The notes beneath the pieces are model-generated. The model did not search any database, was not told the DNA's origin, and worked only from the letters and a program-made list of their open reading frames with translations. Below, in pieces: positions 22,142-55,125 of a stretch of 64,000 bases of DNA; position 1 is the first letter of the stretch, and each line of letters starts with the position of its first letter. The stretch is from an uncultured Desulfobacter sp. (GTDB lineage Bacteria; Desulfobacterota; Desulfobacteria; Desulfobacterales; Desulfobacteraceae). The stretch spans positions 2,208,001 through 2,272,000 of the forward strand of contig OY762069.1 in assembly GCA_963665095.1 (NCBI GenBank), read 5' to 3'. The translations under genes and the position numbers were made by a program.

Positions 22142-22933
22142 ATGTCCCATTATCAATACAGCTTGTGCAGTGTGCCGGCATGGGTCATCGGCTCCCGAGA
22201 ATTCAATGCCAATCCCAGCCCGTTAAGTGTCCATGGGGTACGCGCTTCCCATGCGCATTTTTTTAACCAACTGGACAATCTTGCCAGTTGGGAAGAACGG
22301 GCAAGAATATTCCAAGACTACATGGAAGTTGCGTTTCATCTTCATCAATGGCGGGAAAAGGATCCTGACGGTAAGCAGCTGAGTCTGAAACACAGTTACT
22401 TAAGATTTCTCAGGGGCTGGCTTTTTAATGCGGATTCCACTGAAGGGGCTGTCTTAAAAGGGTGGGTGGAAAGCAGAATGGGGTTGCCCCCAACCTATCA
22501 TGGCGGCCGAATCCGAGGAAAAGATAGCAAAGCGTATTTATCATACCTCACAGACCGCATGAACGGTTCTGCCAGGACCAACGCTATTTTCTCCCAACTG
22601 GATCTTCTTTATGAATTTGTTCAGTACGAAATGACACGCCGCGACCCTGACACGACTCACATAATCCTTTTCAGAGGGGTTCACGGATTTTACGATCATG
22701 ACATACTTGAATGGGATGGCAAGGGGAAAGGGGTTGTCCGGCTTAATAACCTGAATTCCTTTACCCATGATTTTGAGCGTGCCTGGGAATTTGGAACCTT
22801 CATTATTGAAGCCAGGGTTCCCGTATCTAAAATTTTTTTTGACGGGGCGTTTCTCCATGCAGGCATTCTCAAGGGGGAGGAAGAAGTACTGGTCATTGGC
22901 GGAGAGTACGATTTTTCCAGGCGAGTCATATAA
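22142..22933 (+). CDS. draT: NAD+:dinitrogenase-reductase ADP-ribosyltransferase
   Basis: SYLRFLRGW, EGAVLKGWVESRMGLPP.YH, LNNLNSFT, LKGEEEVLVIGG; adjacent to draG. Confidence 0.9.
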   Translation: MSHYQYSLCSVPAWVIGSREFNANPSPLSVHGVRASHAHFFNQLDNLASWEERARIFQDYMEVAFHLHQWREKDPDGKQLSLKHSYLRFLRGWLFNADSTEGAVLKGWVESRMGLPPTYHGGRIRGKDSKAYLSYLTDRMNGSARTNAIFSQLDLLYEFVQYEMTRRDPDTTHIILFRGVHGFYDHDILEWDGKGKGVVRLNNLNSFTHDFERAWEFGTFIIEARVPVSKIFFDGAFLHAGILKGEEEVLVIGGEYDFSRRVI

Positions 22934-22950
22934 CAGGGATACCATCACTA

Positions 22951-23871
22951 ATGAAATCCGCACAGATACCTGACAGAAAACAAATTGTGGAAAAAGCCAG
23001 GGGAGCATTTGTCGGTCTTGCCGTAGGAGATGCCCTAGGGGCGACCGTTGAGTTCATGACGCCCCAGGAGATCAAACTTCACTATGGCGTCCATAAACAG
23101 ATCATTGGCAAAGGCTGGCTCTATCTTAAGGCCGGCCAGGTGACAGATGACACGGAGATGTCCATTTGTATCGGACGGGCCATTCGAAAATCCCAAGGCT
23201 GGCGTCTGCAAGCCGTTGCACAGGAATTTGCCAACTGGGTGGGAGGCCGACCCGTTGATGTCGGATCCACATGTGCCAGGGGAATCAGAAACTATATTCT
23301 TAACCAGCACCTTGAGGTGGCACCGAGTCGCTGGAGTGCCGGAAACGGGGCCTTGATGCGCATGCTTCCCGTTGCACTTTTCACATTGGGAAATAAAGAG
23401 TTGCTTGCTCAATATGTGGTGGAACAGGCCCACCTGACACACAATAATCCACTGTCGGATACGGCATGTATCTTTTTTGGTCATCTGCTTCATGAAACCA
23501 TGATGGGAGCAACATTGGATCAACTTCGGATCCATACTGACGATTTTGCGGATGACCATTCAGATTTCCGTTACCGTCCCTACCCGGGGAAAAGCTCAGC
23601 CTTTATCGTGGATACGGTACAGACTGTTTTCCACTTTCTGTTTTCAACGACAAACTTTGAAGACTGCCTCATTGGTACGGTCAACCAGGGGGGGGATGCA
23701 GATACGACCGGCGCCCTGGTGGGAATGCTTGCCGGTGCTGTCTATGGGATGGAAGGAATCCCAAAACGCTGGTTGAAACGACTGGATTCCCGTGTTTATT
23801 CAGAGGTCAGTGAGCTTGCAGAATATCTGGTGGACCACTGCCCCGCCCTTTTAAAAAAACATGGGGATTGA
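22951..23871 (+). CDS. draG: ADP-ribosyl-[dinitrogenase reductase] glycohydrolase
   Basis: GDALGATVEF, VTDDTEM, GNGALMR, GGDADTTGA. Confidence 0.92.
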   Translation: MKSAQIPDRKQIVEKARGAFVGLAVGDALGATVEFMTPQEIKLHYGVHKQIIGKGWLYLKAGQVTDDTEMSICIGRAIRKSQGWRLQAVAQEFANWVGGRPVDVGSTCARGIRNYILNQHLEVAPSRWSAGNGALMRMLPVALFTLGNKELLAQYVVEQAHLTHNNPLSDTACIFFGHLLHETMMGATLDQLRIHTDDFADDHSDFRYRPYPGKSSAFIVDTVQTVFHFLFSTTNFEDCLIGTVNQGGDADTTGALVGMLAGAVYGMEGIPKRWLKRLDSRVYSEVSELAEYLVDHCPALLKKHGD

Positions 23872-35400: not shown

Positions 35401-37261
35401 AAAACAAATAAAAAAGGCCGACCTTGAATGGACGGCTCTCCAATCCAGTCAAAGGCCTGTGATACGGGTAGGAACAGCGACCTGCGGCAGATCCGCAGGA
35501 TCCCTTCAAACCCTGACCGCCTTTAAATCAAGCGCCGATGCCCTGGGCGTGGATTGCAGTATCATAGAGGTGGGATGTTTGGGGCTTTGTTTTGCTGAAC
35601 CGGTGGTAAGCATCTCCACATGGCCCAGCCCTGCAGTACTTTACGGAAAAATAGACGAATTCAAGGCCAGGGAGTTGATGGAAAAAGATGTAATAAAAAA
35701 CGAACCGATTGAGGAATATGCCCTTGGCACACTGAATGGACAACCAAGGGGGAATATCCCTGAACTATTAAAAACCGATGTTTTTAAACACCAGATCCGC
35801 AGAATACTGAAGCGCTGTGGCCTTATCAATCCTTCAAGCATTGAGCATTACCTTGCAAACGGCGGATACTCAGGGCTTGAAAGGGCCGTAACCATGTCAC
35901 AGGGAGCCATCATCGACGAGGTTACGGCCGCAGGCCTTCGAGGCCGGGGTGGGGCTGGGTTTACCACAGGTGTGAAATGGGGGTTCTGCCGCAAGGCACC
36001 GGGCGAGCCTAAATACCTGATCTGCAATGCCGATGAAGGAGACCCGGGCGCCTTTATGAACCGTTCACTGCTGGAAGGGGACCCCCATTCCCTGATTGAG
36101 GGCATGGTCATTGCCGGCATGGGCATAGGGGCATCCAGGGGCTACATATACTGCCGTGCGGAATACCCTTTGGCCCTGGAACGGCTGGAAACAGCCATCA
36201 GGCAGGCCGAAAACGCAGGCTTTTTAGGCCGAAATATCATGGGCTCAGGGTTTAACTTTGACATTGTTATTAAAATGGGGGCCGGCGCATTTGTCTGCGG
36301 AGAGGAGACCGCGCTCATCTCATCCATTGAAGGGAAACGGGGTATGCCAAGACCACGCCCCCCCTTCCCTGCCATATCAGGATTGTGGGGAAAACCCACC
36401 ATTATCAATAATGTGGAAACCCTTGCATCAGTGGCCCTGATCTTTCAACATAATGCCGGATGGTATGCCGGTACAGGAACTGAACGCAGCAAGGGGACAA
36501 AAACCTTTGCCCTGGTGGGAGAGGTCAAACGGCCAGGCCTTGTGGAAGTGCCCCTTGGGACCACCATCCGTGAAATGGTTTTTGATATCGGTGGTGGCAC
36601 CCGGGGGGATAAGGCGTTCAAGGCTGTCCAGACAGGCGGACCTTCAGGCGGCTGCATTCCGGGAACACTGATAGATACGCCTGTTGACTACGACTCCCTG
36701 AATGCCGTGGGCAGCATTATGGGATCAGGCGGCATGGTTGTGATGAGTACGGATTCGTGCATGGTGGATGTGGCAAAGTATTTCCTGGAATTTACCCAGA
36801 AAGAGTCCTGCGGGGGATGTGTTCCCTGCCGTCTTGGCACAAAACAGATGCTGGACATCCTGGAGGATATCGCGGCCGGGAAAGGCAGCCTTGAAGATCT
36901 GGAAATTTTAGAAGAACTTTGCCGGACAATCCAGAAAAGTGCCCTGTGCGGTCTTGGCCAGACAGCCCCGAACCCTGTCCTGTCTACAATCCGATATTTC
37001 AGATCCGAGTACCTGGCCCATATCATTGAAAAAAAATGTCCGGCACGGGTATGCAGGGAGCTGATTTCATATTTTATTGACCCTGAGAGATGTTCCGGCT
37101 GTGGCAACTGCTCTCGATCCTGCCCTTTAGAGGTCATTTCAGGGCATAAAAACAGACCCCATGAAATTGACCAGTCAAAATGTATCAGGTGCGGAGCCTG
37201 TATGGAAAAATGCTCATCCAAATTCAGTGCGGTCAAATGCATTCCAGGAAAAATTTCTTAA
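35384..37261 (+). CDS. NuoF/HydB-like NADH/FMN subunit with extra Fe-S domains
   Basis: GLRGRGGAGF, NADEGDPGAFM, GGPSGG, ESCGGCVPCR, two C-terminal CxxCxxC clusters. Confidence 0.93.
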   Translation: MSSLFKKQIKKADLEWTALQSSQRPVIRVGTATCGRSAGSLQTLTAFKSSADALGVDCSIIEVGCLGLCFAEPVVSISTWPSPAVLYGKIDEFKARELMEKDVIKNEPIEEYALGTLNGQPRGNIPELLKTDVFKHQIRRILKRCGLINPSSIEHYLANGGYSGLERAVTMSQGAIIDEVTAAGLRGRGGAGFTTGVKWGFCRKAPGEPKYLICNADEGDPGAFMNRSLLEGDPHSLIEGMVIAGMGIGASRGYIYCRAEYPLALERLETAIRQAENAGFLGRNIMGSGFNFDIVIKMGAGAFVCGEETALISSIEGKRGMPRPRPPFPAISGLWGKPTIINNVETLASVALIFQHNAGWYAGTGTERSKGTKTFALVGEVKRPGLVEVPLGTTIREMVFDIGGGTRGDKAFKAVQTGGPSGGCIPGTLIDTPVDYDSLNAVGSIMGSGGMVVMSTDSCMVDVAKYFLEFTQKESCGGCVPCRLGTKQMLDILEDIAAGKGSLEDLEILEELCRTIQKSALCGLGQTAPNPVLSTIRYFRSEYLAHIIEKKCPARVCRELISYFIDPERCSGCGNCSRSCPLEVISGHKNRPHEIDQSKCIRCGACMEKCSSKFSAVKCIPGKIS

Positions 37262-37274
37262 ACAGGAGTGTACA

Positions 37275-39950
37275 ATGAGAAAAATAACCCTGACCATTGA
37301 CGGATTTGAGATTCGGGCCAAAAATACCAGCACCATTCTTGAGGTGGCGCTGGAAAACGGCATATATATCCCCAACCTTTGCTATCATGAAGATTTAAAG
37401 CCCTCTTCCGTCTGCCGCCTGTGCCTGGTGGAGGTGGACGGCCGCATGATAACCTCGTGCAACACAAAAGTTGCCCAGGACATGAAAGTCAAAACGGAAA
37501 CCAAGGAAATTGATAAAACACGGCGTATGATCGTGGAGCTTCTTCTTGTCAATCATGAGCTTGATTGCTTTGAATGCAATCAGAGTACCCTTTGCAAGCT
37601 TCAAAAAGCAGCCAACTATGTCGGTGTCGACGAAGAACGGCTCACCCGCCTCCGGCAATCGAGACACGACAGGCCTGTGGACCGGTCTGATCCGTTTTTT
37701 GACTTTAATCCCAACAAATGTATTCTTTGCGGAGTCTGTGTGCGGACCTGTGATGAAATAGCATCTGTCCATGCCATTGATTTTTCCCAGAGAGGATATG
37801 CCACAAGGATCTCAACCTTTGACGACAACCGGTTTAAGGATTCCAGGTGTTCCTCCTGCGGCGAATGTCTGACCCGCTGTCCCACCGGCGCTTTAACCAT
37901 AAAAGAACGAAGGGGTGTATCCCGGTGGGCGCCATCCATCTGCCCATACTGCGGTGTCGGATGTGCTGTAGAGTTAGGTGTCCGGGGGAACCGGATCATC
38001 TCTGTCAAGGGCAGCAGGGAAAACCCGGTGAACAAAGGCCAGTTGTGTGTAAAAGGCCGATTTGGCCTTTCTTTCGTTAACCACGAAGAGCGGTTGAAAA
38101 TGCCCTTGATCCGGAAAAATGGACGACTGGAAGAGGCCTCCTGGGACGACGCCCTGGATCTTGTGGCCAGGGAATTTAAAAAGGTGACAGGGGACCAGTT
38201 TGCTGTTTTCACCTCGGCCAAATGCACCAATGAAGAAAACTATATTATCCAAAAATTTACCCGGGCTGTGATGGGGTCAAATAATATTGATCACTGCGCT
38301 CGACTGTGACATTCCCCTACTGTGGCAGGTCTTGCCACAAGTTTTGGCTCCGGGGCCATGACAAACTCCATCAATGAAATCCGTGATGCCGCCTGCCTGT
38401 TTGTAATCGGCAGCAACACAACTGCAGCACATCCCATCATCTCCCGTCAGATGAAATATGCTGTCAAAGACGGTGCAAAACTAATTGTTGCAAGCCCCCT
38501 TGAAATCGACTTAAGGGAGTATGCCACAATCTTTCTGCAGCACCTGCCTGGCACAGATGTGGCCCTTGTCATGGGGATGATCAAAATCATTGTGGATAAC
38601 GGCCTGATAAACCGGGACTTTATCCGCAACCGATGTGATGATTTTGATAAATTTGCAGCATCCCTTGAAAGCTTTGATCTTGATTTTGTGGAAAAGACCA
38701 CACGCGTTTCAAAAAATGAGATTAGAAAAGCTGCCGCCCTGTTCGCGGAAAACAGCCCGGCAGCCATTTTTTATGCCATGGGCATCACCCAGCACACCCA
38801 CGGCACCGACAATGTCATGGCCCTGGCCAACCTGGCCCTGGCCACAGGAAATGTGGGATGCCGGTCCGCCGGGGTCAATCCTTTGCGGGGCCAGAACAAT
38901 GTACAGGGGGCCTGCGACATGGGCGGACTTCCCAATGTCTTTCCAGGATACCAGAAAGTTGATAATCCGGAATGCCGCAAAAAATTTGAAAGCGCATGGG
39001 GCACCACGCTTCCTTCGTCTCCCGGCTATACCCACACCGAGATCTTTGACTGCATCCATGACGGAATCATCAAGGCGTTATATGTCATCGGTGAAAACCC
39101 CGTGCTTAGCGAGGCTGATGCCGGCCATGCCGCAAAGGCCATTGAAAACCTGCCGTTTCTGGTGGTACAGGATATTTTTATGACCCAGACCGCCCAAAAG
39201 GCCGATGTGGTGCTGCCAGCAGCCACCTTTGCCGAAAAGCAGGGCACGTTCACCAATACAGAACGGCGGGTGCAATGGTTTAAAAGGGCTATCATGCCCA
39301 GGGGCCAGTCAAAACCTGACCACGAGATTGTCTGCGACATAGCCCGGCGTATGGGGGATAGAGGCTTTGAATATACCGGACCTGAAAAAATCATGGAAGA
39401 GATCGCCTCTCTGGTTCCCCAATACGGCGGGATTTCCTATAAACGGCTTGGCAGACATGGCCTGCAGTGGCCATGTCCGGGTAAAAACCACCCGGGAACC
39501 CCTTATCTATATAAAGAAAAATTCTCAACCCCCAGTGGCCGGGCAAAGTTTGTGCCCCTGGTCTACAAACCATCTGCAGAACTTCCGGATGATGAATACC
39601 CTTTTATCCTGACCACAGTCAGGAGCCCCTATCACTTCCACACCTCAACCATGACAGGACGGATTGAAGGGCTGAATCTTCTTCACCCGGAGGAACGCTT
39701 GGAAATGAATGCATCAGATGCAAAAGAGCTTGGCTTTGAAACCGGCACCAGGGTTACAGTGACCTCGAGAAGGGCCAGGGTCAGGGCCAGGGTGCTGATA
39801 TCCGCCAACTGCCCAAAGGGTGTGACCAATATGACATTTCATTTTGCAAAAAACCCCACAAATCTTTTGACCAGCAGAGCCCTTGACCCGGTTGCAAAAA
39901 TCCCTGAAACAAAAATCTGTGCAGTTAAAATCAGCCCTATAGCGCCTTGA
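37275..39950 (+). CDS. fdhA: Formate dehydrogenase alpha subunit, selenocysteine-containing (TGA 38307-38309), with N-terminal NuoG-like Fe-S domains; about 891 aa
   Basis: ORFs 37161-38309 and 38322-39950 are in the same frame across DHCARL-U-HSPTVAGL; CPYCGVGC, LRGQNNVQGACD. Confidence 0.95.
38310..38339 (+). promoter_or_regulatory. Bacterial SECIS element of fdhA
   Basis: 11 nt after UGA: TGTGGCA-GGTCT-TGCCACA; loop GGU at +22 to +24, as recalled for E. coli fdhF. Confidence 0.85.
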
Positions 39951-40154: not shown

Positions 40155-41090
40155 TTAACAATGGTGCGGATGAAGCTTATGATCCGAACAGCAGTGCTGA
40201 CTGCTGTCCCTGTAAAAAGGAGTCATGCGCACCAGGATTATCAGCACAGATCCGATGATGGCTGCCAGCACAAGGGTGCCATGGAACCTGTCACTGAACA
40301 AGGAACTGCCAAGGGGCAGGACAAACAGGATAATGCCGTAACTGACCCGGCCGGCAAGGCTCTGGAGGGACATATAGGTGCTCCGCTCAGACTGGGCCAG
40401 CAATGGTGCCAGTTCAGCGTTGATCAACGGCATGCTGATGGCCTTTGAACAGCTCCGGATCAGAAGCAGTACCACCACTGCCGGATGAATCATCACCGCC
40501 ATGGCATAAATAATCAGAAGTTGAAAAAGTGCTGTGGCCATCAGCATCATCCTCACCCGGCAACGATGGCGAATACCTTTGCCGAAACGGGTGAACCAGG
40601 AGGCGATAAGCATGGTTGCCGCCAGGTGAAGACCCGTAAAAAACGGGGTGGTATGCAATGCCATTCCCATGGCGCCCGCCACCTTCCCAAGATAAGGCTG
40701 GTAAAATTCATAGGGAAAACTGAGCCGTACAGTCATGGTCAGGCTGAAAAGCGTAAAAAAAACGGAACCGTCTGGTCCAGGATTTTTTAATCACTCCGGC
40801 CACAGTGGCCTGCAGGGAGGCCTGAGCCCCTGCCACCGGTGCCGGTTCCGTCATTTTCAGCATCACCCCCAAAGAGGCCATGGATGCCAGAAATGACGCC
40901 GCATAAATCCATTTAAGGCCAAACACAGCCAGGGCTCCGCCACCCAGATATAATACACCGACCCCAGCCACAGGGTCTGGGAAAGGGTTAAAACAGAAGT
41001 AAAATACAAAAAAAGGCCGGCCCCCAGAAGTAGCAGTTTCTGAAAAACTGGCAATAGATAGTACCGGATATTGTCATTTAACGGCGTCAT
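40155..41090 (-). pseudogene. Fragmented MFS transporter
   Basis: Three short TM-rich ORFs in different frames; N-terminal NIR.Y..QFFRNCYFW split by frameshifts; C-terminal RSTYMSLQSL. Confidence 0.7.
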
Positions 41091-43681: not shown

Positions 43682-45775
43682 CTATTTTGCCAGACTGGGA
43701 AAAAGCTTCATATCTGTGTGGGGTAGAAACTGGGCCTGGACAAACTCGTCCATAAACCGGCTGGAACTTGAAAAGTCCACATAGGTCATGGCATTGGAAA
43801 TCTCAATCGCCTTTCTACGGAACATACCGGACATTAACGCCATATATGCCCCTGCAATGGAACTGTTTCCCATGTATCGGAATTTTGCCCGGTCAATATC
43901 GGGCAAAAGCCCGATGCGAACAGCCTTTTCAATATTTAGATACTGACCGAACCCGCCGGTGATAATGAATTGCTCCACCGCGGAAAAATCCATTCCGATC
44001 TGCTCAAGAAGTGAAATAAAACCGGCAAAAACAGCTGCTTTGCTTAGAACCAGGCTGCGGATATCTGACTCCGTGAAAATGATATCCTCGCTTGTTCCGG
44101 CTTTTTCACTGGATTCAATAATAAATGCCGGTTCCTCCTTAAACCATGTCATGCGGGGATGTTCGTCGTCCAGTTTGAATTTGCCGTCCTGGCCGATCAC
44201 GCCCTTGTCCAGCATCTCGGATAAAAGATCAATCATGCCTGAACCACATATACCCCGGGCAGGCCTGTCTTCCACGGTTGCATAGTCGGGGACAAATGTG
44301 GACGGATCCAGGGTAACTTTTTCAATGGCCCCGTCTTCGGCCCTCATGCCCCAGCGGATACCTCCGCCCTCAAAGGCAGGGCCTGCCGAACAGGCCGCAG
44401 TCATGAGAAATTCATTGGAGCCAAGCACAATCTCACCATTGGTTCCTATATCAATAAACATGGTCAGGGGCGTTTTGTCATAAAAGCCTGTATACAAAAC
44501 CCCTGAAACAATGTCTCCGCCCACATATCCGGCAGGCCCCGGCATAATAAATACGCCCGCATAGTAGGCAGCTTTCAGTCCAATTTCACCTGCTTTTAAA
44601 ATGGGGAATTCAGACACCGTGGGAATATAAGGCTCACGGCGTATGTAGGCGGCGTCTATGCCCAAAAGCAGATGAATCATGGTGGTATTACCTGAGATGA
44701 CCACATTTTCAATGTTGTTATGGGTCTCTTCAAGGGATGACAGGGCCCTGGCACTTAAGTTGTTGATGGTGGAAACCGCCATTTTTTTCAGCTTGCTCAC
44801 CCCGTCCCTTTCAGAACAGACAATCCGGTTAATGACGTCATCTCCACAGGCCGCCTGACTGTTATGCCCCGAGGCGCCTGCAATAATTTTTCCTGTGGCC
44901 ATCTCCACCACATAGACTACAATGGAGGTGGTCCCAAGGTCCACGGCAAGTCCCAGCGACCTTGACGCCAGGTGGACCGGCCGAACATCCACGATTTCGG
45001 AAGAACATTTTTTTTCAAGAATCGACGCCTGCACATGCCAGTTATCTTCCCGCACCGCCCGGGTCAGTTGCCGCATGACCCGGATGCCGGTACTCACTTT
45101 TTCAGTATTGATATCCTGCTGCCTTAAAGCGCGCTTCAGGCGCTCAAGGTCGCTCACAGTATCGTCCAGAGTGGGGGCTGACATCTCCAGGGTATATTTT
45201 TTCACCATGGGATCAGGGGTCATGACAAGACCCAGAAGTTTTTCCGTAGCCTGACTTCCCATGCCCACAGCCCTGAGCTTTTTTTCCAGGGTCTCTTCGG
45301 GTATGCGCACCACCACATCCCCGTCCACCCGTGCCTGACACCCAAGAACCATCCCCTGCTTGCGTTCACTGTCACTCAGCAGCGATGTGTGGGTTCCGTT
45401 AAGAACTGTGCCTGATTCCACAATCAGCCGGCATTTGCCGCAGGAGCCCTTTCCATTGCACGAGGCGTTCACGTACACATCCGCATCCAAAGCCGCTTCA
45501 AGCAGTGTGGTTCCCTTTGGTACTGTAACGGTAATATCTTCAGGCTTAAAATGGATTGAACATGTAAGGGCGGCTTTTTCCGGCAAACCTGCTTCATCTG
45601 CCTGGTCTGCATCTTTAAACCCTTTTTTGGATATAAAATGAATGGGGCAGGAAGATCTGAACTTACAGTAGATATCAGGATCCCGACACGCCAGACACTC
45701 CTCACACAGGTAGATCTGATGCTTCATACAAAGGTAACTGGTTTCACGATCCGGATGATTGATGCAATAGCCCAT
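43682..45775 (-). CDS. ASKHA-domain reductive activator of corrinoid proteins (RACo/DUF4445) with [2Fe-2S] domain and extra N-terminal Cys/His domain
   Basis: CNGKGSCGKC, DLGTT, GNTTM.H, DIGTNGE, CSAGPAFEG, GICGSG; AAGGAGG RBS before ATG 45775. Confidence 0.88.
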   Translation of the reverse strand: MGYCINHPDRETSYLCMKHQIYLCEECLACRDPDIYCKFRSSCPIHFISKKGFKDADQADEAGLPEKAALTCSIHFKPEDITVTVPKGTTLLEAALDADVYVNASCNGKGSCGKCRLIVESGTVLNGTHTSLLSDSERKQGMVLGCQARVDGDVVVRIPEETLEKKLRAVGMGSQATEKLLGLVMTPDPMVKKYTLEMSAPTLDDTVSDLERLKRALRQQDINTEKVSTGIRVMRQLTRAVREDNWHVQASILEKKCSSEIVDVRPVHLASRSLGLAVDLGTTSIVVYVVEMATGKIIAGASGHNSQAACGDDVINRIVCSERDGVSKLKKMAVSTINNLSARALSSLEETHNNIENVVISGNTTMIHLLLGIDAAYIRREPYIPTVSEFPILKAGEIGLKAAYYAGVFIMPGPAGYVGGDIVSGVLYTGFYDKTPLTMFIDIGTNGEIVLGSNEFLMTAACSAGPAFEGGGIRWGMRAEDGAIEKVTLDPSTFVPDYATVEDRPARGICGSGMIDLLSEMLDKGVIGQDGKFKLDDEHPRMTWFKEEPAFIIESSEKAGTSEDIIFTESDIRSLVLSKAAVFAGFISLLEQIGMDFSAVEQFIITGGFGQYLNIEKAVRIGLLPDIDRAKFRYMGNSSIAGAYMALMSGMFRRKAIEISNAMTYVDFSSSSRFMDEFVQAQFLPHTDMKLFPSLAK

Positions 45776-45941
45776 TGGTGCCTCCTTGTGGAAGATATCC
45801 GTTTCAATTTGTCCGGTCCCCCTGGGCACCGTCATGGGCACAACAGTGTTTTTCAGGGGGACCGCACATAAGAAATATTAGAAATTCAAATAGTTATCAA
45901 TTAGTTCATAGTCGTTTTTCATCAATTCATCAATACAATTT

Positions 45942-47969
45942 TTACTCTTTTTTGCCATACCCCATGGGCAGCTGCTTAAACCGGCCGCCGTGAATAATGG
46001 GATCGCCTTTATACCCTAACGCTTTGAAGTTAATATAATCGGTTTTATTGATCAGATGCTCAACATCCCTTCCCTTGGATTTCATATAAGAGAAGTCCGT
46101 TCCCTTATGGGCGATCTTTTTAAAATCCACGTTCCGGTTATCCTGGTGACACCGGTTGCAGGTCTGTTCTCCGGTCAGGCTTTCATGGCACTGAACACAG
46201 GAAAGGGCCATATCCGCCGGCATGACTTCGTGTTCCAGGCGCCAGTACATCCAGGTTTCCTTCCATTTATACGACCCAGAATAAGGCAGATTCACAGCAC
46301 TCATACCGTCGACAAAAGCCTTGTCCCAGTCCAGATTTTTCCAGTATGCGGTTTTATCCTCCTTGTTTCTTGGGAAAAGATGGGGCACCAGGATCAACTC
46401 ATGGTCCGCATCCACCGCCTGAATTCCTTTCATGATTTTAAACGGCGTAATTTTGGAAGTCGGATCTTTTATAGACCCCACAGGGGTAGTCAGGTTAATT
46501 ACATCTGCGTTGAGATCCACCTTGTCCCCCATCAGCACCCGGTCCATGTATCCTGAAAACCATTGATAATCAGGTACGGCTGATTCCTCCCATTTAAACT
46601 CGCCCTTTTTCCAGTTATAGTCCGGCTTGCCGTATTTATCCATTTCAGGCTTGCGTTTCTTGTCCCCTGCTTTTGACCAGTCCCAGAACGTCTTGGTGGG
46701 CTTGCATTTGGCAAACACCGGAGAGTGGCAAACGTTGCAGTCCAGAGTTTTGCAGTGGTTGTTCAGGTGGTGATCTAAAAGCTCGCCACTGTAATGGGGC
46801 GCCTTGCCGTGGCAATCTTCGCATGACACAGCACCCTCAGCCGCCGGTACCGAGGTGCTGCGGCCGGCAATCTTGTGATTCCGGGTCTTATGGCACTGGG
46901 TACAGGTAAAGTCATATCCGCCCATGTGAATGTCACAGCTTCTTTCCGGCGTGAGTAACTGCCGGGACATATCTGCGTGCTTAATGGCATCCCCTCCCCC
47001 GCCGTTAAAGTGGCAGGAGCCGCAGGTTGCCCTGCTGGAATGCCCCACATGCTGGGCAACTTTTTTTAAATCAACATCTTTTTCCGGCATACCGGCTGCC
47101 GGTGGTGCTTTTTTATAAGTACCGGTGGTGTCATGACACACCAGACAGTCCATTTTTGTTTTATCTGTAAAATCAAAATTTTCGTCTTTCCAACCATATC
47201 CTGCATGACAGCTTGTGCAACGAGCCTCGTTGCTGATAGGGCTGATTCAGTAGTTGTTCAGGGCTGTGGTGCCCTTGCCGTGAAGAATATCCTTTCGATG
47301 ACCTGTGGTGTACGGAGACGGTCCACGCCACAGCCAGTGGGCCGTGGTCAGCATATCTTCCCCCTGGGTCTCGTGGCAACGGAGACACTCCGCTGTCACC
47401 TGAAATACATCCGCATTGTCAGGCAGGTTGACAAGTTCCTTGTGGTCAGGCACATTCTTCAAATGACACCCCTTGCAGTCTGTGGGGCCTTTGGCTTCAG
47501 CCTGATGGCACTCCATGCACTGCTGGTGGTAGGCGGCTTTGAGTCCGATCCGTTCAGGATGTTCCGGATTAAAGGCGTCCTGATGGCAGGCCGAACACCT
47601 TGTCGTCTCAAGGGCCGCTTCATTCAGGGGCCGGTAATGATGACATTTGGTGCAGTCCTGGATAAGTGCTGCATGCCGTTTGTGAGCAAACCGCACCGGC
47701 TCGTAATGATCTTCCCGTTTTTTGATAATCGGGCTGTCCAGAAGAAAATATACATCCGTGATATCCGACAGGGAGAGCCCTTCTTTTAAGAGCCGCATTT
47801 TTCGTTCAATCTGGTGCTCGTCTTTATATGCTTTAACAAAGGGCACCGCCTCTTTTGCCCTATCCCTGGCCTGCTCCTGGTCCGGGGCTGTCCACGCTTT
47901 GGCGGCAAGGCAGGGAGCCGGTAAAACCAGACCCATACCTGCCAGAATGATCAAGAACTTTTTAATCAT
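45942..47969 (-). CDS. Exported 13-heme cytochrome c (c3-like + octaheme tetrathionate-reductase family), predicted selenocysteine at TGA 47247-47249; 675 aa
   Basis: The two track ORFs share a frame, joined by GKGTTALNNY-U-ISPISNEARCTSCHAGYGW; 13 CXXCH motifs; signal peptide. Confidence 0.85.
47217..47246 (-). promoter_or_regulatory. Candidate SECIS element of the multiheme cytochrome
   Basis: mRNA UGA-AUCAGCCCUAUCA-GCAACGA-GGC-UCGUUGC; loop G at +24/+25. Confidence 0.7.
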
Positions 47970-47980
47970 GGTACCCTCCT

Positions 47981-49165
47981 TTAAGATTTCTGAAGAACCG
48001 GTAAATACGTCACGGCGATCCTGTAAATGAACATCAGTGTTGCGATAAGGCCAAACGTCACCATCATCTCACCGATGGAGGGGAAATATCCCGGATCACT
48101 CAACGGTGGCTTGAATCCCACAATAAAAACATTGATTCTGTTTAACACCACCCCGCCCACAATCAGCGTTGCCGCCGTAAAAAGGCCCTTTCTTGAGGTC
48201 CTCACCTGTCTGAATAACAGCATGAACCAGGGCAGGATAACGCCGAATACCATTTCAGCAATGAAGGAGTTTGTCTGGGCAGTCCCGTCAAAAAGGTAGA
48301 CCCAGGTTCCCCGGACTGCCATGTCTCCGACCTTAAGGGCCATATAGATGCCTAAAAGAAAAATGGTGATCCGGGTCAGAGGTGAAAGGATCTGCATTTC
48401 AGTATCAAGTTTAAATGAGGATGTGGCAATGGTGGTTTCAAATACCACCATGGGATAGCCCACCGCAAAAGCAGATGTTAAAAACAGCAGCGGCAAAATG
48501 GGCGTGTACCACAAAGGATGCAGCTTGGTGGGGGCAACAAGCATTAAAGACCCCAGGCTTGACTGGTGCATGCAGGAGAGAACCACCCCCAGGATAATCA
48601 ATACCCACATGATTTTTCCCACAATGGCATCACCAATTGACAACACCAACTCTACCAAACTGTTCAAGGAAGCAAGGGCCCCCGGCAGGTTCACCCGCCC
48701 TTTGAATTGCTCGGCCACAATGGGAAAAAATTCAAGGTAAAGCACATTGAGGTAGCACATTACGCACATGGCCACTTCAAAAAGCACGGAATTCGGATTC
48801 CAGTTAAACATGGGCTTCCAGATGGCCCAGGACCGGCCGATGTCCACAATCAGCCCCAGAACCACAAAGGTATAGCCAAGTACGGCAGTCAGAAGGGCCG
48901 GGCGGGTGACCGGTTCATAATAGTGCCGGCCGAATATATGGGCCAGGGCTGCTGTGGTAAAACCGCCGGCAGCCAGAGCCACCCCGGTGGCCACATCCAC
49001 CCCCACCCAAAGGCCCCAGGGCCGGGCAGTACTTAAGTTGGCCACATATCCGATGCCGCCTGTAAACCGTGCAATGATCGCAAACGCACCTGCGATCATA
49101 AAAACCAGCATGACCAGAACGCCAGGAGTCCAGAAAGGCGTTTTTAACGCTGCAGGTTTATGCAT
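47981..49165 (-). CDS. NrfD/PsrC family membrane anchor (HybB/HmcC-like)
   Basis: [41 protein letters not shown] before ATG 49165. Confidence 0.9.
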
Positions 49166-50087
49166 CTTTGCCTCCTTTCTCCAAGTCTTTCTCTTTTTCC
49201 GCGCCCGGCTTATTTGAAACGCGCATGAATAGACCCAGGATGCTGAAAAGGGCGATGGGCGACCACAGGTAGCTGAACAGGGAGTGCTGAATGGTTTCAG
49301 ACAGTTTGGGCATGGGTTTTTCCGGCAGCACCGGCAGATTGACCTTTTCAAAGGGCACAGCTGAAATATAGAGCCACGAGGTGCCGCCCACCTCCTTTTC
49401 CCCGTAAATATGATTGATATATTTCCCGGGATTTTCAGTGACTCTTTTTTTCGCCACCTTGAGCAGGGTCTGCCTTTTCCCGAAGGTCAGTGCTTCAGTG
49501 GGGCAGATGGTGGCACACCCGGGAAGTCCGCCTTCCTTTGAGATCCTGTCATAGCAGAATGTGCACTTCATCACCCGGGGGGTGACAGGGTCAAAGTACT
49601 CATAGGCCGGGATCTCAAACGGGCAGGCCACCATGCAGTACCGGCAGCCGATGCACTTGTCCTTATCGTACCGCACAGCACCGGTCTCATCTTTGGTCAA
49701 TGCCCCCACAATACAGGCGGAGACGCAGGCCGGATCCTGGCAGTGCATACACTGGACCTTGGCAAAGGTCGGCACCGGCTTTTGAAACGCATCCACGGTT
49801 CCTGTGAAGTACCGGTTAACCACCGTATAGGCTTTGTCATCAGGCCTTCGTTTGGTTTCAAAAATAGTACACTGGCAGTTGGGTCGTTCCGGAGCCGGTA
49901 AATGATTTACTTCCGCACATGCCTCCTCACATTTCCGACAACCCACACACCGTGTCAGATCCACCAGACATCCGAACGGGTCCGGAGGGGCTTTGGATTC
50001 CCAGGCACTGGCAGAAGAAGGTGCTGCCGCTACTGCAGCACCGGCAGCACCCATGACTTTAAAAAATCTGCGTCTGCTAAGTTGCAT
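49158..50087 (-). CDS. Tat-exported 4Fe-4S protein (HybA/HmcB-like)
   Basis: SRRRFFK signal; [29 protein letters not shown]-terminal TM. Confidence 0.92.
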
Positions 50088-50148
50088 TGAACCTCCTTGA
50101 GAATATTAACCGTTATTTTTTAAGCCACTTATTACCTTCACTGTCTTC

Positions 50149-50388
50149 TTATCCGGACCCTTCTTTTTTAAGGATACCCAGACAGATATAATCCATATGC
50201 TTTTTGTGGTATAAAAGCGCATCATCCGATCGCTGGACGAGCAATTTTAAATTTCTTGCCACCTCTTCATCGTTTAAAATCACTTCGAGCCTCTCTCCTT
50301 TTTTCATGGCATTCAGGCAGTTTTTGAATTGGAGCAGATCCAGGGGAAAAATGATGCCCCGTATATCCAAAACCTTTTTTTCTGCCAT
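50149..50388 (-). CDS. TusA/SirA-like protein lacking the CPxP cysteine
   Basis: LDIRGIIFPLDLL ... MKKGERLEVI.ND; GGAGGAGG RBS. Confidence 0.7.
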   Translation of the reverse strand: MAEKKVLDIRGIIFPLDLLQFKNCLNAMKKGERLEVILNDEEVARNLKLLVQRSDDALLYHKKHMDYICLGILKKEGSG

Positions 50389-50432
50389 ACCTCCTCCACG
50401 GATAAAGAAGAGTTGTAATTGAGGCATTGATG

Positions 50433-50448
50433 TGCAACAGGTGTGCCT
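50433..50448 (-). promoter_or_regulatory. Sigma-54 promoter of the tusA-hybA-nrfD-cytochrome operon
   Basis: Minus strand AGGCAC-ACCTG-TTGCA, about 45 nt before the ATG. Confidence 0.75.
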
Positions 50449-50509
50449 TTGTTTCCGAGAATTGTAACCTGTTCATTTCATGAAATTTTTTTTTAAATTT
50501 ATTGCCCAA

Positions 50510-50580
50510 TGTTAAAGCAAGTGTTAAATTAGTTTAAACAGGTGTTAAATTTTAGGAAGCACTTTAAACACATGTTTAAA
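50510..50580. promoter_or_regulatory. Candidate activator-binding sites (TGTT(T)AAA repeats and palindromes)
   Basis: TGTTAAA at 50510, 50522 and 50543; palindrome TTTAAACA-CA-TGTTTAAA at 50563-50580. Confidence 0.55.
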
Positions 50581-50618
50581 ATGGTCTCTTTTGCCCAACC
50601 TGACTGGAGACAGACCTG

Positions 50619-52016
50619 ATGCAAGAGCAGGAAATAAATGCGTTCTGGAAAAAAATTGTGAATACCATCAATGACGGACTGATGTTCATCGGGCCGGATG
50701 GGTCCATACTAATGGTGAACAAAGCGTTTGAAACCCTGACCGGCTATTCTTCAGAAGAGGCCATCGGTATCTCCTGCCGCACCCTGGAGTGCGATGCCTG
50801 CGAACAGACGTTGAACACGGGGATAAAATCGGCCTGGTGCCGTTTGTTTGAACCGGGTGAATCTGAGATGAAAAAATGCCGCTGCCTGATCCGCCGCAAA
50901 GACGGCAGCTTCCTGCCGGTGTTAAAAAACGCATCTGTTTTCAGAGATGAAAGCAGTAAAGTCCTGGGGGTGGTGGAAACCCTGACCGATATTTCAGAGA
51001 TTGAACGACTTGACGAACAGGTGCATATGCTGGCCAGGCAGTGCAGTCACGACAATGATTTTTTCGGCATGGTGGGGAAATCCAGACAGATGGAATCGGT
51101 GTTTGAGATGATCCGGAAAGCGTCTGAATCCAATGCACCGGTGATTATCTTAGGTGAAAGCGGATCCGGCAAGGAACTGGTGGCCGATGCGGTCCATATG
51201 CTCGGCACCCGGAAAAACGGGCCCTTTATCCGGCTTAACTGTGCGGCCCTGAACCCGTCTGTTCTTGAAAGTGAGATGTTCGGCCATGTGAAAGGCGCAT
51301 TTACAGGGGCGCATTCCAACAGGATCGGCCGGTTTGAGGCCGCACACAAGGGCAGCTTTTTCCTGGACGAAATAGGAGATATGCCCATGCCGCTGCAGAC
51401 AAAACTGCTGCGGGTGCTTGAGTCCGGACAGTTTGAACGGGTGGGGGACATTGCAAGTGTCCGGGTGGATGTCAGGATTATTACAGCCACCAATAAAAAT
51501 CTTCAGACATTAATAGCTAAAGACCAGTTTCGTCAGGATCTGTTTTTCCGGATCAATGTCATTCCCATTCATGTGCCGGCACTGCGTCAGCGCTTGGAAG
51601 ATATACCGCTGCTGATTACCGCGTTTATCCGTGACCTTAACCGGACATCAGGGAAACTGATTAAAGGCGTCAGCCGGGATGTCATGGACCGGTTCATGGC
51701 CTACCAATGGCCCGGCAATGTCCGTGAGCTTAAAAATGCCCTGGAATATGCCTTTGTTACGGCTGACGGCCCGGTTATCAGGCAGGGTCACCTGCCAAAA
51801 ACCATAATGTCAGATTTCGGCAGTGTAGAGAAATCTGTGGCAGAAACTAAAAAAAGCAGTGACACCGTTGATGAAAAACAGCAGTTGATTGATGCGCTTG
51901 TAAAAACCCGCGGCAATCAGACCATGGCTGCAAAACTATTGAACATCAACCGTGTTACTGTGTGGAACCGGATGAAAAAATATCATATCGACTTAAAAAA
52001 AACATTGGAATGCTAA
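50619..52016 (+). CDS. Sigma-54-dependent activator (PAS-AAA+-HTH)
   Basis: GESGSGKE, GAFTGA, FLDEIG, WPGNVREL, Fis-type HTH; Cys-rich PAS domain. Confidence 0.95.
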   Translation: MQEQEINAFWKKIVNTINDGLMFIGPDGSILMVNKAFETLTGYSSEEAIGISCRTLECDACEQTLNTGIKSAWCRLFEPGESEMKKCRCLIRRKDGSFLPVLKNASVFRDESSKVLGVVETLTDISEIERLDEQVHMLARQCSHDNDFFGMVGKSRQMESVFEMIRKASESNAPVIILGESGSGKELVADAVHMLGTRKNGPFIRLNCAALNPSVLESEMFGHVKGAFTGAHSNRIGRFEAAHKGSFFLDEIGDMPMPLQTKLLRVLESGQFERVGDIASVRVDVRIITATNKNLQTLIAKDQFRQDLFFRINVIPIHVPALRQRLEDIPLLITAFIRDLNRTSGKLIKGVSRDVMDRFMAYQWPGNVRELKNALEYAFVTADGPVIRQGHLPKTIMSDFGSVEKSVAETKKSSDTVDEKQQLIDALVKTRGNQTMAAKLLNINRVTVWNRMKKYHIDLKKTLEC

Positions 52017-52107
52017 CCATAAACTGACATAAAAAAAGAAGGGCCGAACCTTATAAAAAGTGCTTTTCATGGCCCTTTTTCACATGATGGGGAGGAGTGA
52101 CTGTTTC

Positions 52108-55100
52108 ATGCGGCGGGCCATTAATTCCATATTTTTTGAAAAACGGGATTCAAAACTGATTGAAATCGTGAATTCCGTATATGATGAACCCAAGTCCCTC
52201 GGATATACCGGCAAACTGCTCTACCCGTTTTTCCATCCCTTAGGCATTAAGGAGCTTGCCGAAACCAGAGGGCTTCGCGCGGCTTTCTCCATCGTCAGTC
52301 TCATGAAATCCATTGAACACGGCAGTATCACCAGCCGCCTTCAGGCCCTTGCAGGGCTTAAGGATGATTTAGTGGACACCGTGGCCGGCCCCATGCCAAA
52401 AAACACAGCCAGGGTTCTTCTGCAGATCATGAAGGACCTTGTAAGGGCCCAGGGGGACCCGGACCGGCAAATCCGACTTGCCCACGATTTCAGGATTGCA
52501 GCCTTTGGCAAGCCCCGGATCATCCGCTATTTTCTCCAGCAGTACCACCTTCTTGAAATGCCTGAAGAGTGGAACCAGATCACCTTTGACGATCATGTCC
52601 ACGATGCCAATACTTCGGGCAGGAAAAGCCCGACCCATCTGATTATGGATGCCTGGATTAAAGGCATCCGCCGCCTGCGGGTGATTTATTACCACTATAT
52701 TGAACCCAGATGTGCCCTGGAACTTATTGAAGCGGCCAGGATCATGGAGATTGATTTACGGATCGGCATCGAGTTCTGGGCCCTCCACAGGGAAAAATAT
52801 GTCTCTTTTATCTGGGTGTCACGGGGCCTGCCAAACCTTGAGGCTTTTTTATCATTTCTTGCAGCCGGGCCTGTGGTGGACTTCATGGAAGAGGGCAAAG
52901 CGCTCTCAAGATATCAGGGCAGCTATCTTCACGGTCTTTTGGAAAAATTTAATCGAAACGACCGAAACGAATTATGTGAAAAGTTTGGCATATGCATGGA
53001 GCCCCTTAAGGCGGAAGAATTCTTAACCTTTATAACTCCGGGTCAGCCAAGCCTTGAGTACCTTGCAGAATTTATCCATACGAAAACCGTTCAGGCCATT
53101 CAATCCCGTCTTTCCCAGACAGAACAGTGCCAGGATCAAAGTCAGGCGGAAGCCGAAGAAGTTGTAAGACTGCATAAAACCCTGAAAAATTTAACGGTAA
53201 AAGAACTGCTCAGGGATTACCTTGATTCAGATAATTTTTTCAGTCGGTTCCGGGACTTTGTCAGACAGGAAGGGGGGCGTGCCCCTGACAGGCTGACTAT
53301 TGGTGTTGTACCTTTGCTTGAACAGATAGACAGGCTTCACCATGATTATCGCATCACCCTGAATCTTGACCGGTTAAGACCCGAAGATGTTCTCGAGCTT
53401 TTATATGAGAGCTGCGGCAGGATTAACCGAATTGAAATTATTAATCTGAAGAAATACAACCCGTTGGATACCCAAACCATTCTTTGCGTAAATGCCCTGC
53501 AGGAGGCTATAAACCAGGGCAGCATCCTTAAATTAAAACGAATTATTTCAAAAATCATCGCGGATGTTTCAAAACAGAAAGATAATGATAAAAACCACCA
53601 GCTTAAATCTCTTTCTTTGATTCTTAACGATATAGACGAACTCAAACACATGTTTGACATCCGTCCCATTGAGTTACGAATCGGATCGGATTCCTCAGGG
53701 AAACCCTATCAGAGCCATGGCATGGGCTTCGCCGTTATAGATACCCTGCCCTGGAAGGTCAGGCGCACCATTGAAAAGGGGAACAACGGACGCCTTATCC
53801 TCCCGGTCAATGCAAAAAGCCTTTTATGCACAACCACGGTTCTGAACCGGGAGCTGCCAGGGATTATTTCATGGATACCCGGCATCAGGACGCTGTTTGC
53901 AGATAAAAAACAGCAGTGGCTGCCAGGCCCATTCCACATGGATAGTGTCACAAAGGGGAATCTTCTGACCCTGGGCAAATCAACCGCATCAAAGAACGGT
54001 TTCACCTCCCATGCCCCGGCATCTGTCCATAAAACACCAGCTGTCTCCTTGAAATACCTGGATACCCGGATCAAAAATGCATGTAAAATTATCATTGGAT
54101 TTATTCCGGCCCAGCTCTGCTTCATGATGACCAAAGATTGGTGGCTGCTGGCCTATTTCGGAGCGCTTATCTGGTTTTCCATTACCGGCATTCGTAATGT
54201 CATCCAATCGGTTCTTGGTGGCGGAGGTATCAAAAGGGCCTCTCTTTTAAAATGGAACGACTATGTCAGCTGGGACCGCCTGGCAGATTCACTGTTCTAT
54301 ACCGGATTTTCGGTGCCGCTTCTCGACTATCTGGTCAAAATTCTCATTCTTGAAAAGTCTTTTGGAATTACCATGGCAAACGGCCCTGTTACCCTTTATG
54401 CTGTCATGGGTCTTGCCAACGGCATCTATCTTTCCAGTCACAATTTCTTTCGCGGACTTCCCAAGGGTGCTGTCACCGGCAATTTTTTCAGAAGCATTCT
54501 ATCCATACCGGTTGCCGTGGCGCTCAGTGCTGCCGCCGGCTCATTGTTAGGGGTTTTTAACCTGGTGGACATCAATGGCATTCTTCAGAAATGGGCCGCC
54601 ATTATTTCAAAAGGCGCATCCGATATTGTGGCGGCATTCATTGAAGGTACAGCGGACCGGACTTCTTATATACACATAAGAAAACACAATATCCGAAAAA
54701 AAATATCTGACTTGTTTGATATCTTTTCTAAACTTGTCATGCTCTTTCCGGAAACCAAAGAGCTTAAAATCCTGGAGGATTCCAGCATGCTTCTTGATAA
54801 CAAAAACTCAGAAGTGAGGGATCTGGCCACCCTGATTATAATAAACGCCCTGGATCTGTCCTATTTCTGGATGTACCTTCCCCGGGCCCAGTCCGCCCTG
54901 GTCCGGATGGTATCGGAACTGACACCGGAAGAAAGAGTGATTTTTTTTCAATCCCAGAACATGCTCGCCCATGAACACCATATCAGCAGACTGTTTGTAG
55001 ACGGAGTGCTTGGAAAAAATTTTTCCCGGCCCCTCTCTTTTTATCTGACCTCTTACAAAACCTACCTTCGCAGCCTTCAAAAGGCAACGGGAATGTCTTT

Positions 55101-55125
55101 ACCGAGAAATCTCAGCAAAGCGTAA
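52108..55125 (+). CDS. Large hypothetical protein with PHP-like motifs and C-terminal TM bundle
   Basis: DDHVHD..TSG..SP, GIEF, GSDS..SHG; about 5-6 hydrophobic helices; GGAGGAG RBS. Confidence 0.7.
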   Translation: MRRAINSIFFEKRDSKLIEIVNSVYDEPKSLGYTGKLLYPFFHPLGIKELAETRGLRAAFSIVSLMKSIEHGSITSRLQALAGLKDDLVDTVAGPMPKNTARVLLQIMKDLVRAQGDPDRQIRLAHDFRIAAFGKPRIIRYFLQQYHLLEMPEEWNQITFDDHVHDANTSGRKSPTHLIMDAWIKGIRRLRVIYYHYIEPRCALELIEAARIMEIDLRIGIEFWALHREKYVSFIWVSRGLPNLEAFLSFLAAGPVVDFMEEGKALSRYQGSYLHGLLEKFNRNDRNELCEKFGICMEPLKAEEFLTFITPGQPSLEYLAEFIHTKTVQAIQSRLSQTEQCQDQSQAEAEEVVRLHKTLKNLTVKELLRDYLDSDNFFSRFRDFVRQEGGRAPDRLTIGVVPLLEQIDRLHHDYRITLNLDRLRPEDVLELLYESCGRINRIEIINLKKYNPLDTQTILCVNALQEAINQGSILKLKRIISKIIADVSKQKDNDKNHQLKSLSLILNDIDELKHMFDIRPIELRIGSDSSGKPYQSHGMGFAVIDTLPWKVRRTIEKGNNGRLILPVNAKSLLCTTTVLNRELPGIISWIPGIRTLFADKKQQWLPGPFHMDSVTKGNLLTLGKSTASKNGFTSHAPASVHKTPAVSLKYLDTRIKNACKIIIGFIPAQLCFMMTKDWWLLAYFGALIWFSITGIRNVIQSVLGGGGIKRASLLKWNDYVSWDRLADSLFYTGFSVPLLDYLVKILILEKSFGITMANGPVTLYAVMGLANGIYLSSHNFFRGLPKGAVTGNFFRSILSIPVAVALSAAAGSLLGVFNLVDINGILQKWAAIISKGASDIVAAFIEGTADRTSYIHIRKHNIRKKISDLFDIFSKLVMLFPETKELKILEDSSMLLDNKNSEVRDLATLIIINALDLSYFWMYLPRAQSALVRMVSELTPEERVIFFQSQNMLAHEHHISRLFVDGVLGKNFSRPLSFYLTSYKTYLRSLQKATGMSLPRNLSKA

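Follow-up and report, generated by a model that had tools for sequence, protein, structure and literature searches.

In-frame UGA as a very probable selenocysteine codon in a 13-heme OTR-family cytochrome c of an uncultured Desulfobacter

Gene content of the locus and architecture of the cytochrome

The window analysed here, a 64,000-nucleotide stretch of DNA from an uncultured Desulfobacter sp., carries on its reverse strand a gene for a multiheme cytochrome c of the octaheme tetrathionate reductase (OTR) family (Table 1). On translation, positions 45942-47969 formed a single frame of 675 codons whose sole internal stop was a TGA at codon 241, with the surrounding frame reading GKGTTALNNY*ISPISNEARCTSCH, where the asterisk marks the TGA. 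An ORF finder returned the same frame as two pieces, 47247-47969 (240 aa) and 45942-47153 (403 aa), and the stretch between them was open. The genome carries dsrA.

Table 1. Features of the cytochrome locus (nucleotide positions refer to the window, residue numbers to the cytochrome)
Feature	Position	Strand	Remarks
13-heme cytochrome c gene, 675 aa	45942..47969	-	TIGR04315 match, 1SP3 alignment, structure model
Signal peptide (predicted)	residues ~1-22		judged by eye from sequence
Tetraheme cytochrome c3-like domain	residues ~86-170		likened to HmcA, TmcA and nine-heme cytochrome domains
OTR domain, 8 hemes	residues 176-597		1SP3 alignment, E 1e-115
Additional 13th CxxCH	residues 604-608		beyond OTR domain
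In-frame TGA, inferred selenocysteine	47247..47249	-	codon 241; aligned with Shewanella OTR Cys64; 80 TGA and 28 TGY among 108 loci
SECIS-like hairpin, 7-bp stem and 3-nt GGC loop	47217..47233	-	starts 13 nt after UGA; overlaps codons 246-251
NrfD/HybB/HmcC-type membrane subunit	47981..49165	-	394 aa from ATG at 49165; ~10 hydrophobic segments; PF03916; adjacent in 59/59 loci
HybA/HmcB-type 4Fe-4S protein	49158..50087	-	twin-arginine-like leader (SRRRFFK); 59/59 loci
Small TusA-fold protein without usual N-terminal cysteine	50149..50427	-	PF01206, E 1e-7; 38/59 loci
Sigma-54-type -24/-12 promoter-like motif	50434..50447	-	GGCAC-N5-TTGC; pattern match
Divergent PAS / sigma-54 activator, likely operon regulator	50619..52016	+	present in 53/59 loci

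The cytochrome gene was the last gene of a conserved FeS/NrfD-type operon in 59/59 loci, the number of compared loci, duplicates included, for which at least 3.5 kb of upstream DNA was available. The NrfD-type and 4Fe-4S genes overlapped by 8 bp. The cysteine usual at the N terminus of TusA proteins belongs to a CPxP motif. In 43/58 loci a sigma-54-type motif like that of the window occurred in the 600 nt preceding the FeS gene, compared with 0/58 inside the gene, for a looser pattern that was selected after the window site had been seen; a stricter pattern was found at 16/58 loci within 1200 nt. A scan for sigma-70 promoters and terminators gave nothing clear. Beyond the 3' end of the cytochrome gene lay a RACo/AcsV-like corrinoid activator gene (43682-45841, reverse strand), which was nearby in just 11/59 related loci and is therefore not a fixed part of the module.

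The 13 CxxCH motifs of the cytochrome began at residues 106, 125, 151, 165, 195, 251, 275, 316, 356, 383, 411, 591 and 604; eight of them (195-591) were in register with the Shewanella OTR structure 1SP3, and the other five lay outside the OTR domain. The protein scored 491.3 bits with the OTR profile TIGR04315 (cut-off, 375) and was the only match to it in the genome. An AlphaFold model (pLDDT 85.7) had 1sp3 as its best Foldseek match (E 2.5e-41, TM 0.86 by target length, rmsd 6.1). Counted along the alignment to Shewanella OTR, K232 corresponded to Lys56 and codon 241 to Cys64. Lys56 is described as the ligand of catalytic heme II in OTR (PMC3769277) and its column was invariant in 114/114 aligned sequences; K232 presumably ligates the catalytic heme in the same way. 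The residue at codon 241 would lie beside this heme, to judge from its match to Cys64 and from a published figure legend that names a cysteine among the conserved features of the catalytic site of OTR (bioRxiv 2023.04.20.537704). A literature search on OTR together with Cys64, Lys153 or Asp150 found no relevant paper.

The preliminary description of this DNA, made from the letters alone, had joined the two ORFs into one frame interrupted only by the TGA, assigned the product to the OTR family with 13 hemes and equated the UGA with the conserved active-site Cys, all of which the frame, the motif count, the profile score, the fold match and the Cys64 alignment bear out. It had also set a selenocysteine (Sec) next to the catalytic heme; here the match to the Cys64 column stands, while the proximity itself is read from the alignment and the legend.

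The in-frame TGA, its hairpin and the selenocysteine machinery

Homologous loci (n = 135) were fetched for comparison, of which 130 carried the motif around the column and 108 remained after duplicates had been removed. The column occupied by codon 241 was TGA at 80 of these distinct loci, TGC at 17 and TGT at 11, and no other codon was seen; related loci are not independent of one another, so the counts given here do not have the force of statistical tests. Among the five unmatched loci, L112, L120 and L123 had the TGA in an NSF variant of the motif with the second hairpin type described below, and the matches of L076 and L094 started past the column. A family-wide scan of 161 genomes gave 62 near-full-length matches with E = 0, of which 52 (our own included) held one TGA and 10 none, and a sample of 401 genomes from the phylum gave an OTR above the cut-off in 65, with TGA inside the match in 29 of the 65, its position at the column being confirmed for the fetched loci only. 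At the protein level, 120 database homologues had Cys (104), Leu (9) or Ala (1) at the column and lacked the motif in 6 cases, 4 of them C-terminal fragments; the files write U as C, and "Cys" may therefore include Sec. The Leu or Ala residues in place of the catalytic-site Cys occurred in 13-heme homologues (P0105, P0107, P0110, P0111, P0113, P0114 and P0116-P0119).

The folding energy of the hairpin downstream of the TGA was by itself unremarkable (z of -0.4 to -1.8 against shuffles), so that the evidence for it comes from the comparison of homologues. A full 7-bp stem was present at 80/80 TGA loci and at 1/28 Cys loci. It occurred in two registers among the TGA loci, type A over S-N-E-A-R-C (72 loci) and type B over W-C-R-C-T-S (8 loci), and the type B genes formed one clade in the tree described below. 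A metagenome scan with a pattern that left 27 nt past the TGA free gave at least 120 matches, and among the matches listed all 116 distinct ones had the full stem (90 type A and 26 type B), a count that is not fully independent because the heme-motif codons in the pattern already set some of the 3' arm. Within the 13-heme clade, codons 246-251 were each 100% invariant at synonymous sites in 64/64 TGA genes; the mean top-codon share of 321 other conserved degenerate residues was 0.63 and reached at least 0.98 in only 3, the TGA among them, and in 13 Cys genes the scorable codons at the hairpin positions were variable (0.54-0.92). No compensatory double changes were seen in the stem among the compared loci, only 5 G-C to G-U cells, and an Rfam scan of positions 45500-50700 returned no SECIS, riboswitch or other credible family.

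Several residues near the hairpin differed between groups of genes. Cys genes mostly had Pro two residues before the heme-II motif, where Sec genes of type A had Ala or Ser; this difference suggests that the protein sequence at this site is dictated by the hairpin. Type B genes of 8-heme OTRs had an extra Cys (or Ser) two residues ahead of the heme-II motif (SNWCRCTSCH; L121, L122, L128, L131, L133 and L136-L138, and also L112, L120 and L123), which may be imposed by the hairpin or may be a partner of the Sec. One Cys-form OTR, L127 (genome G290), sister to the type B clade, retained the full type B stem with an altered loop, and its stem may be a relic of a reversion from Sec to Cys.

The genome encoded SelA, SelB and SelD, all above their profile cut-offs, and a tRNA-SeC was found with ARAGORN. 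The window itself holds a second in-frame TGA, at 38307 (HCARL*HSPT), in a formate dehydrogenase alpha subunit gene, and this too is followed at a similar distance by a 7-bp hairpin; the gene (37161-39950, forward strand), split by its TGA and lying downstream of NuoE/NuoF-like genes, appears to encode an ordinary Sec-FdhA. The SelD gene (locus L003, G000:C1:6745510-6746433) also had an in-frame TGA (AAG*AAK) with a downstream hairpin. ARAGORN additionally called a tRNA-Pyl (CTA) at G000:C1:900717-900790, and pyrrolysine may therefore be used alongside selenocysteine in this organism. Across the compared genomes, selA was found in 76/79 that carried a TGA form, with selB in the remaining 3, and in 45/46 that carried a Cys form; because Cys-form genomes also have selA, the correlation of TGA with selA is uninformative.

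Were the TGA a true stop, arising from a pseudogene, a split gene or a sequencing error, the locus would yield two polypeptides or none. Gene callers do list 240-aa and 399-aa products, the form in which a public protein collection stores the gene of this genome, and a relative (P0121) has been called from a start directly past the TGA. Yet the identical TGA recurs across families at 80 loci and alternates solely with Cys codons, the hairpin codons are frozen, a break at the TGA would part the Lys ligand from its heme motif, and the downstream fragment has no visible signal peptide. Moreover, contigs from two other public sequencing runs crossed the region unbroken with the same TGA and no alternative letter, the X9 contig having 3 differences elsewhere and the X6 contig being near-identical and perhaps the source of the window DNA. 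Sequencing error and recent nonsense mutation were ruled out by the TGA in 80/108 loci together with its recurrence in other runs, and termination at codon 241 in any form appears highly improbable. The TGA/TGY-only column, the TGA-specific hairpin, the frozen codons, the match to OTR Cys64 and the sel genes together make it nearly certain, as far as comparative data can, that the UGA is recoded. SelB carrying Sec-tRNA would almost certainly recognise the hairpin 13 nt downstream and insert Sec241, and the existence of this hidden selenoprotein is very well supported at the level of sequence.

Most of what the preliminary description had proposed for the recoding held in the wider comparison. 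Its hairpin proved to have the 7-bp stem, G-containing (GGC) loop and spacing that it gave, and to be conserved in TGA-bearing homologues; the column alternated between TGA (80 loci) and Cys codons (28 loci) as it had suggested might be seen, with the TGA not limited to this strain; the sel genes that it expected from the FdhA parallel were all present, as were the FdhA UGA and hairpin themselves; and the split gene that it foresaw from standard pipelines is what the protein collection contains. For the bacterial SECIS element that it proposed to search for, a conserved TGA-specific hairpin was found, and no Rfam SECIS model matched.

Sec and Cys forms among relatives

The nearest named relatives were Desulfospira (85-89%) and Desulfobacter (82-85%); with the dsrA of the genome they point to a sulfate-reducing host within the Desulfobacteraceae. 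Close relatives at 84-88% identity had Cys at the column, and selA was kept in all 10 of their genomes; given these Cys forms, Sec is dispensable in this enzyme. A quick maximum-likelihood tree was built from 106 OTR domains, with the column and the residues of the hairpin masked and 2 short rows left out; it had SH-aLRT as its only branch support and a midpoint root. It required at least 8 state changes, and well-supported branches forced 5 of these for Cys. Inside the Desulfobacteraceae clade that bears Sec lay ten Cys forms, a nesting that suggests reversions in organisms still making Sec. Both forms are represented in culture, TGA in Desulfocicer vacuolatum and Desulfosarcina and Cys in Desulfobacter curvatus, D. 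vibrioformis and Desulfospira joergensenii.

Possible function and relation to known systems

From its sequence features the cytochrome is predicted to be exported to the periplasm, to receive 13 hemes and to dock on the FeS/NrfD pair, a layout like that described for the Nrf, Ttr, Psr, Mcc and Nhc complexes (PMC8076601). It is probable that the sigma-54 activator drives the operon and that the cytochrome, the 4Fe-4S protein and the NrfD-type subunit assemble into a membrane complex, within which electrons would move among quinol, the NrfD-type subunit, the Fe-S clusters and the hemes; periplasmic cytochromes may be further electron partners, by way of the c3-like domain. At the catalytic heme the selenolate could, in the way proposed for the unrelated MccSep, attack a sulfane sulfur to give a Se-S intermediate cleaved by heme electrons, a step for which the case seems to us finely balanced, with tetrathionate, polysulfide or thiosulfate as candidate substrates. 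MccSep is described as a heme-plus-Sec polysulfide reductase and is thus a precedent for S-S cleavage (PMC13510729). Substrates of this kind are favoured because the exchange of Cys for Sec would point, on the MccSep analogy, to nucleophilic chalcogen chemistry, because a Cys-form OTR from Beggiatoa is reported to reduce tetrathionate far faster than nitrite (PMC6449678), because tetrathionate raised otr transcript levels 36-fold in microcosms of sediment (PMC8528874) and because a TusA-fold gene often heads the operon. Counterpoints are that this TusA-like protein lacks its usual cysteine, that close relatives do without the Sec, that the column is Leu or Ala in 10/114 motif-bearing database homologues, and that an otr deletion is reported to have had no effect on tetrathionate respiration in Shewanella ANA-3 (PMC12949373). 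Taken whole, substrate class included, the proposal that the Sec 13-heme OTR and its FeS/NrfD partners form a quinol-linked reductase of S-S-bonded sulfur intermediates has, in our estimate, about an even chance of being correct.

The same selenoprotein complex could instead reduce nitrite or hydroxylamine at the Lys-ligated heme iron, in ammonification or detoxification, with Sec241 tuning the pocket. These are the prevalent OTR activities reported in vitro (PMC12949373), the operon mirrors NrfABCD (PMC8076601), and the NrfA family (PF02335) had no match in the 97%-complete genome. Iron-centred nitrogen chemistry would, however, offer no obvious reason for repeated exchange of Cys and Sec, and the Beggiatoa kinetics and the TusA-fold gene that accompanies the operon also argue against it, so that we consider this function unlikely. 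Sulfite, which has been suggested for Shewanella OTR (PMC12949373), or selenite would be a further candidate for periplasmic reduction, and it is the one to which we give least credence. Slightly more sulfite is reported to have built up in an ANA-3 ttr/otr double mutant, and MccSep reduces selenite; against this, the host already has dsrA, MccA-type sulfite reduction is described as involving copper, unlike OTR (PMC12949373), and MccSep is reported to have given no sulfite reduction (PMC13510729). The sulfur, nitrogen and selenium oxyanions that the preliminary description had named all stay candidate substrates.

The direction of electron flow may also be the reverse, since the membrane module scored best with HmcBC/HybAB, which are described as passing electrons towards quinone (PMC8076601). 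As in Hmc or Nhc, the periplasmic c3 pool, or a reduced sulfur compound oxidised at the Sec, would then supply electrons that pass through the Fe-S protein to menaquinone. The kinship of the N-terminal domain with those of HmcA, TmcA and the nine-heme cytochrome, the best scores of the partners with HmcB/HybA and HybB/HmcC, the description of Nhc as a TpIc3:quinone oxidoreductase (PMC8076601) and the presence of dsrA in the host all fit such a flow. A mere electron conduit, though, would need neither the invariant catalytic Lys nor Sec, and MmcA, an OTR relative turned conduit, is described as having lost this site (bioRxiv 2023.04.20.537704); we hold reverse flow to be rather improbable, and slightly more so than nitrite or hydroxylamine reduction.

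Relative to Shewanella oneidensis OTR (SO4144, 1SP3; TIGR04315), the protein shares the eight heme motifs, the Lys56 and Cys64 columns and the predicted fold, and differs in having Sec for Cys, in carrying an extra tetraheme c3-like domain at its N terminus and in its 13th heme motif. It also has a dedicated FeS/NrfD operon module; Shewanella OTR, by contrast, is described as a soluble protein to which CymA may supply electrons (PMC12949373). MccSep/ExtKL of Geobacter sulfurreducens (NF040886) is likewise a periplasmic multiheme cytochrome c with a Sec adjoining the active-site heme (PMC13510729), but its active heme is His/Cys-ligated, unlike the Lys-ligated heme of OTR, and the NF040886 profile gave no match to our protein at E 0.001 or better, so the families are different. 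The operon resembles Hmc/Nhc, NrfABCD, TtrABC and MccACD in combining a multiheme or catalytic periplasmic subunit with a 4Fe-4S protein and an NrfD-type membrane subunit. The 4Fe-4S protein scored 281 bits with HybA (cut-off, 263) and 342 with HmcB, under its cut-off of 420; the profiles of the 16-heme HmcA and of HmcC gave 64 and 277 bits against cut-offs of 400 and 550. The partners thus fell short of the cut-offs for HmcB, HmcC and QrcD; the cytochrome, which has an OTR catalytic site, was far below those of HmcA and the nine-heme cytochrome. The Ohc system (ohcBAC) of Desulfovibrio vulgaris is by its description similar in combining FeS, multiheme cytochrome and membrane-protein genes in one operon, next to a sigma-54 activator that is divergent (PMC4641369); it differs in that its cytochrome is described as octaheme and its membrane protein as a heme-b one.

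A Sec-containing TIGR04315 protein, WP_331457571.1, is listed as GenBank-annotated in Table 1 of a 2026 review (PMC13188914), so the protein described here does not represent a new selenoprotein family. By that listing alone the two have in common the family and one Sec; the review entry comes without motif, position, architecture, distribution or experiment. A search of the open-access literature, with most subscription papers outside its coverage, found no experimental or comparative study of Sec-OTRs, and the 13-heme, membrane-wired variant is widespread and apparently unstudied. We tentatively propose, at somewhat less than an even chance, that sulfate reducers have in the Sec-OTRs a second class of heme-selenoenzymes, independent and widespread, with repeated Sec/Cys switching and two SECIS hairpins in the heme-II motif region, and that the 13-heme c3-OTR with its quinol module is an unrecognised periplasmic tetrathionate/polysulfide reductase of the Desulfobacteraceae. 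If this is true, the repeated switches provide natural pairs for finding the physiological substrate of OTR, whose role is described as still open (PMC12949373); Sec at the catalytic-site Cys, a fixed quinone-module operon and cultured Sec/Cys near-twins make that role testable. The fragmented gene record and the TGA in 29 of 65 sampled OTR-bearing genomes also make it likely that Sec-OTRs are under-counted in protein-based surveys of sulfur cycling in sediments.

Other genes of the window were noted in passing. A 1021-aa ORF at 52060-55125 (forward strand) had no Pfam or NCBIfam match; its look-alikes in the Atlas fell into unnamed clusters that were most common in Thermodesulfobacteriota, and gave a weak lead to a PHP domain (0.77). 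A 193-aa ORF at 40155-40736 (reverse strand) matched an MFS transporter profile below the cut-off and over the first half of the profile only, and is possibly truncated. A DraT/DraG-like pair (dinitrogenase reductase ADP-ribosyltransferase and glycohydrolase) at 22142-23871 (forward strand) suggests regulated nitrogen fixation.
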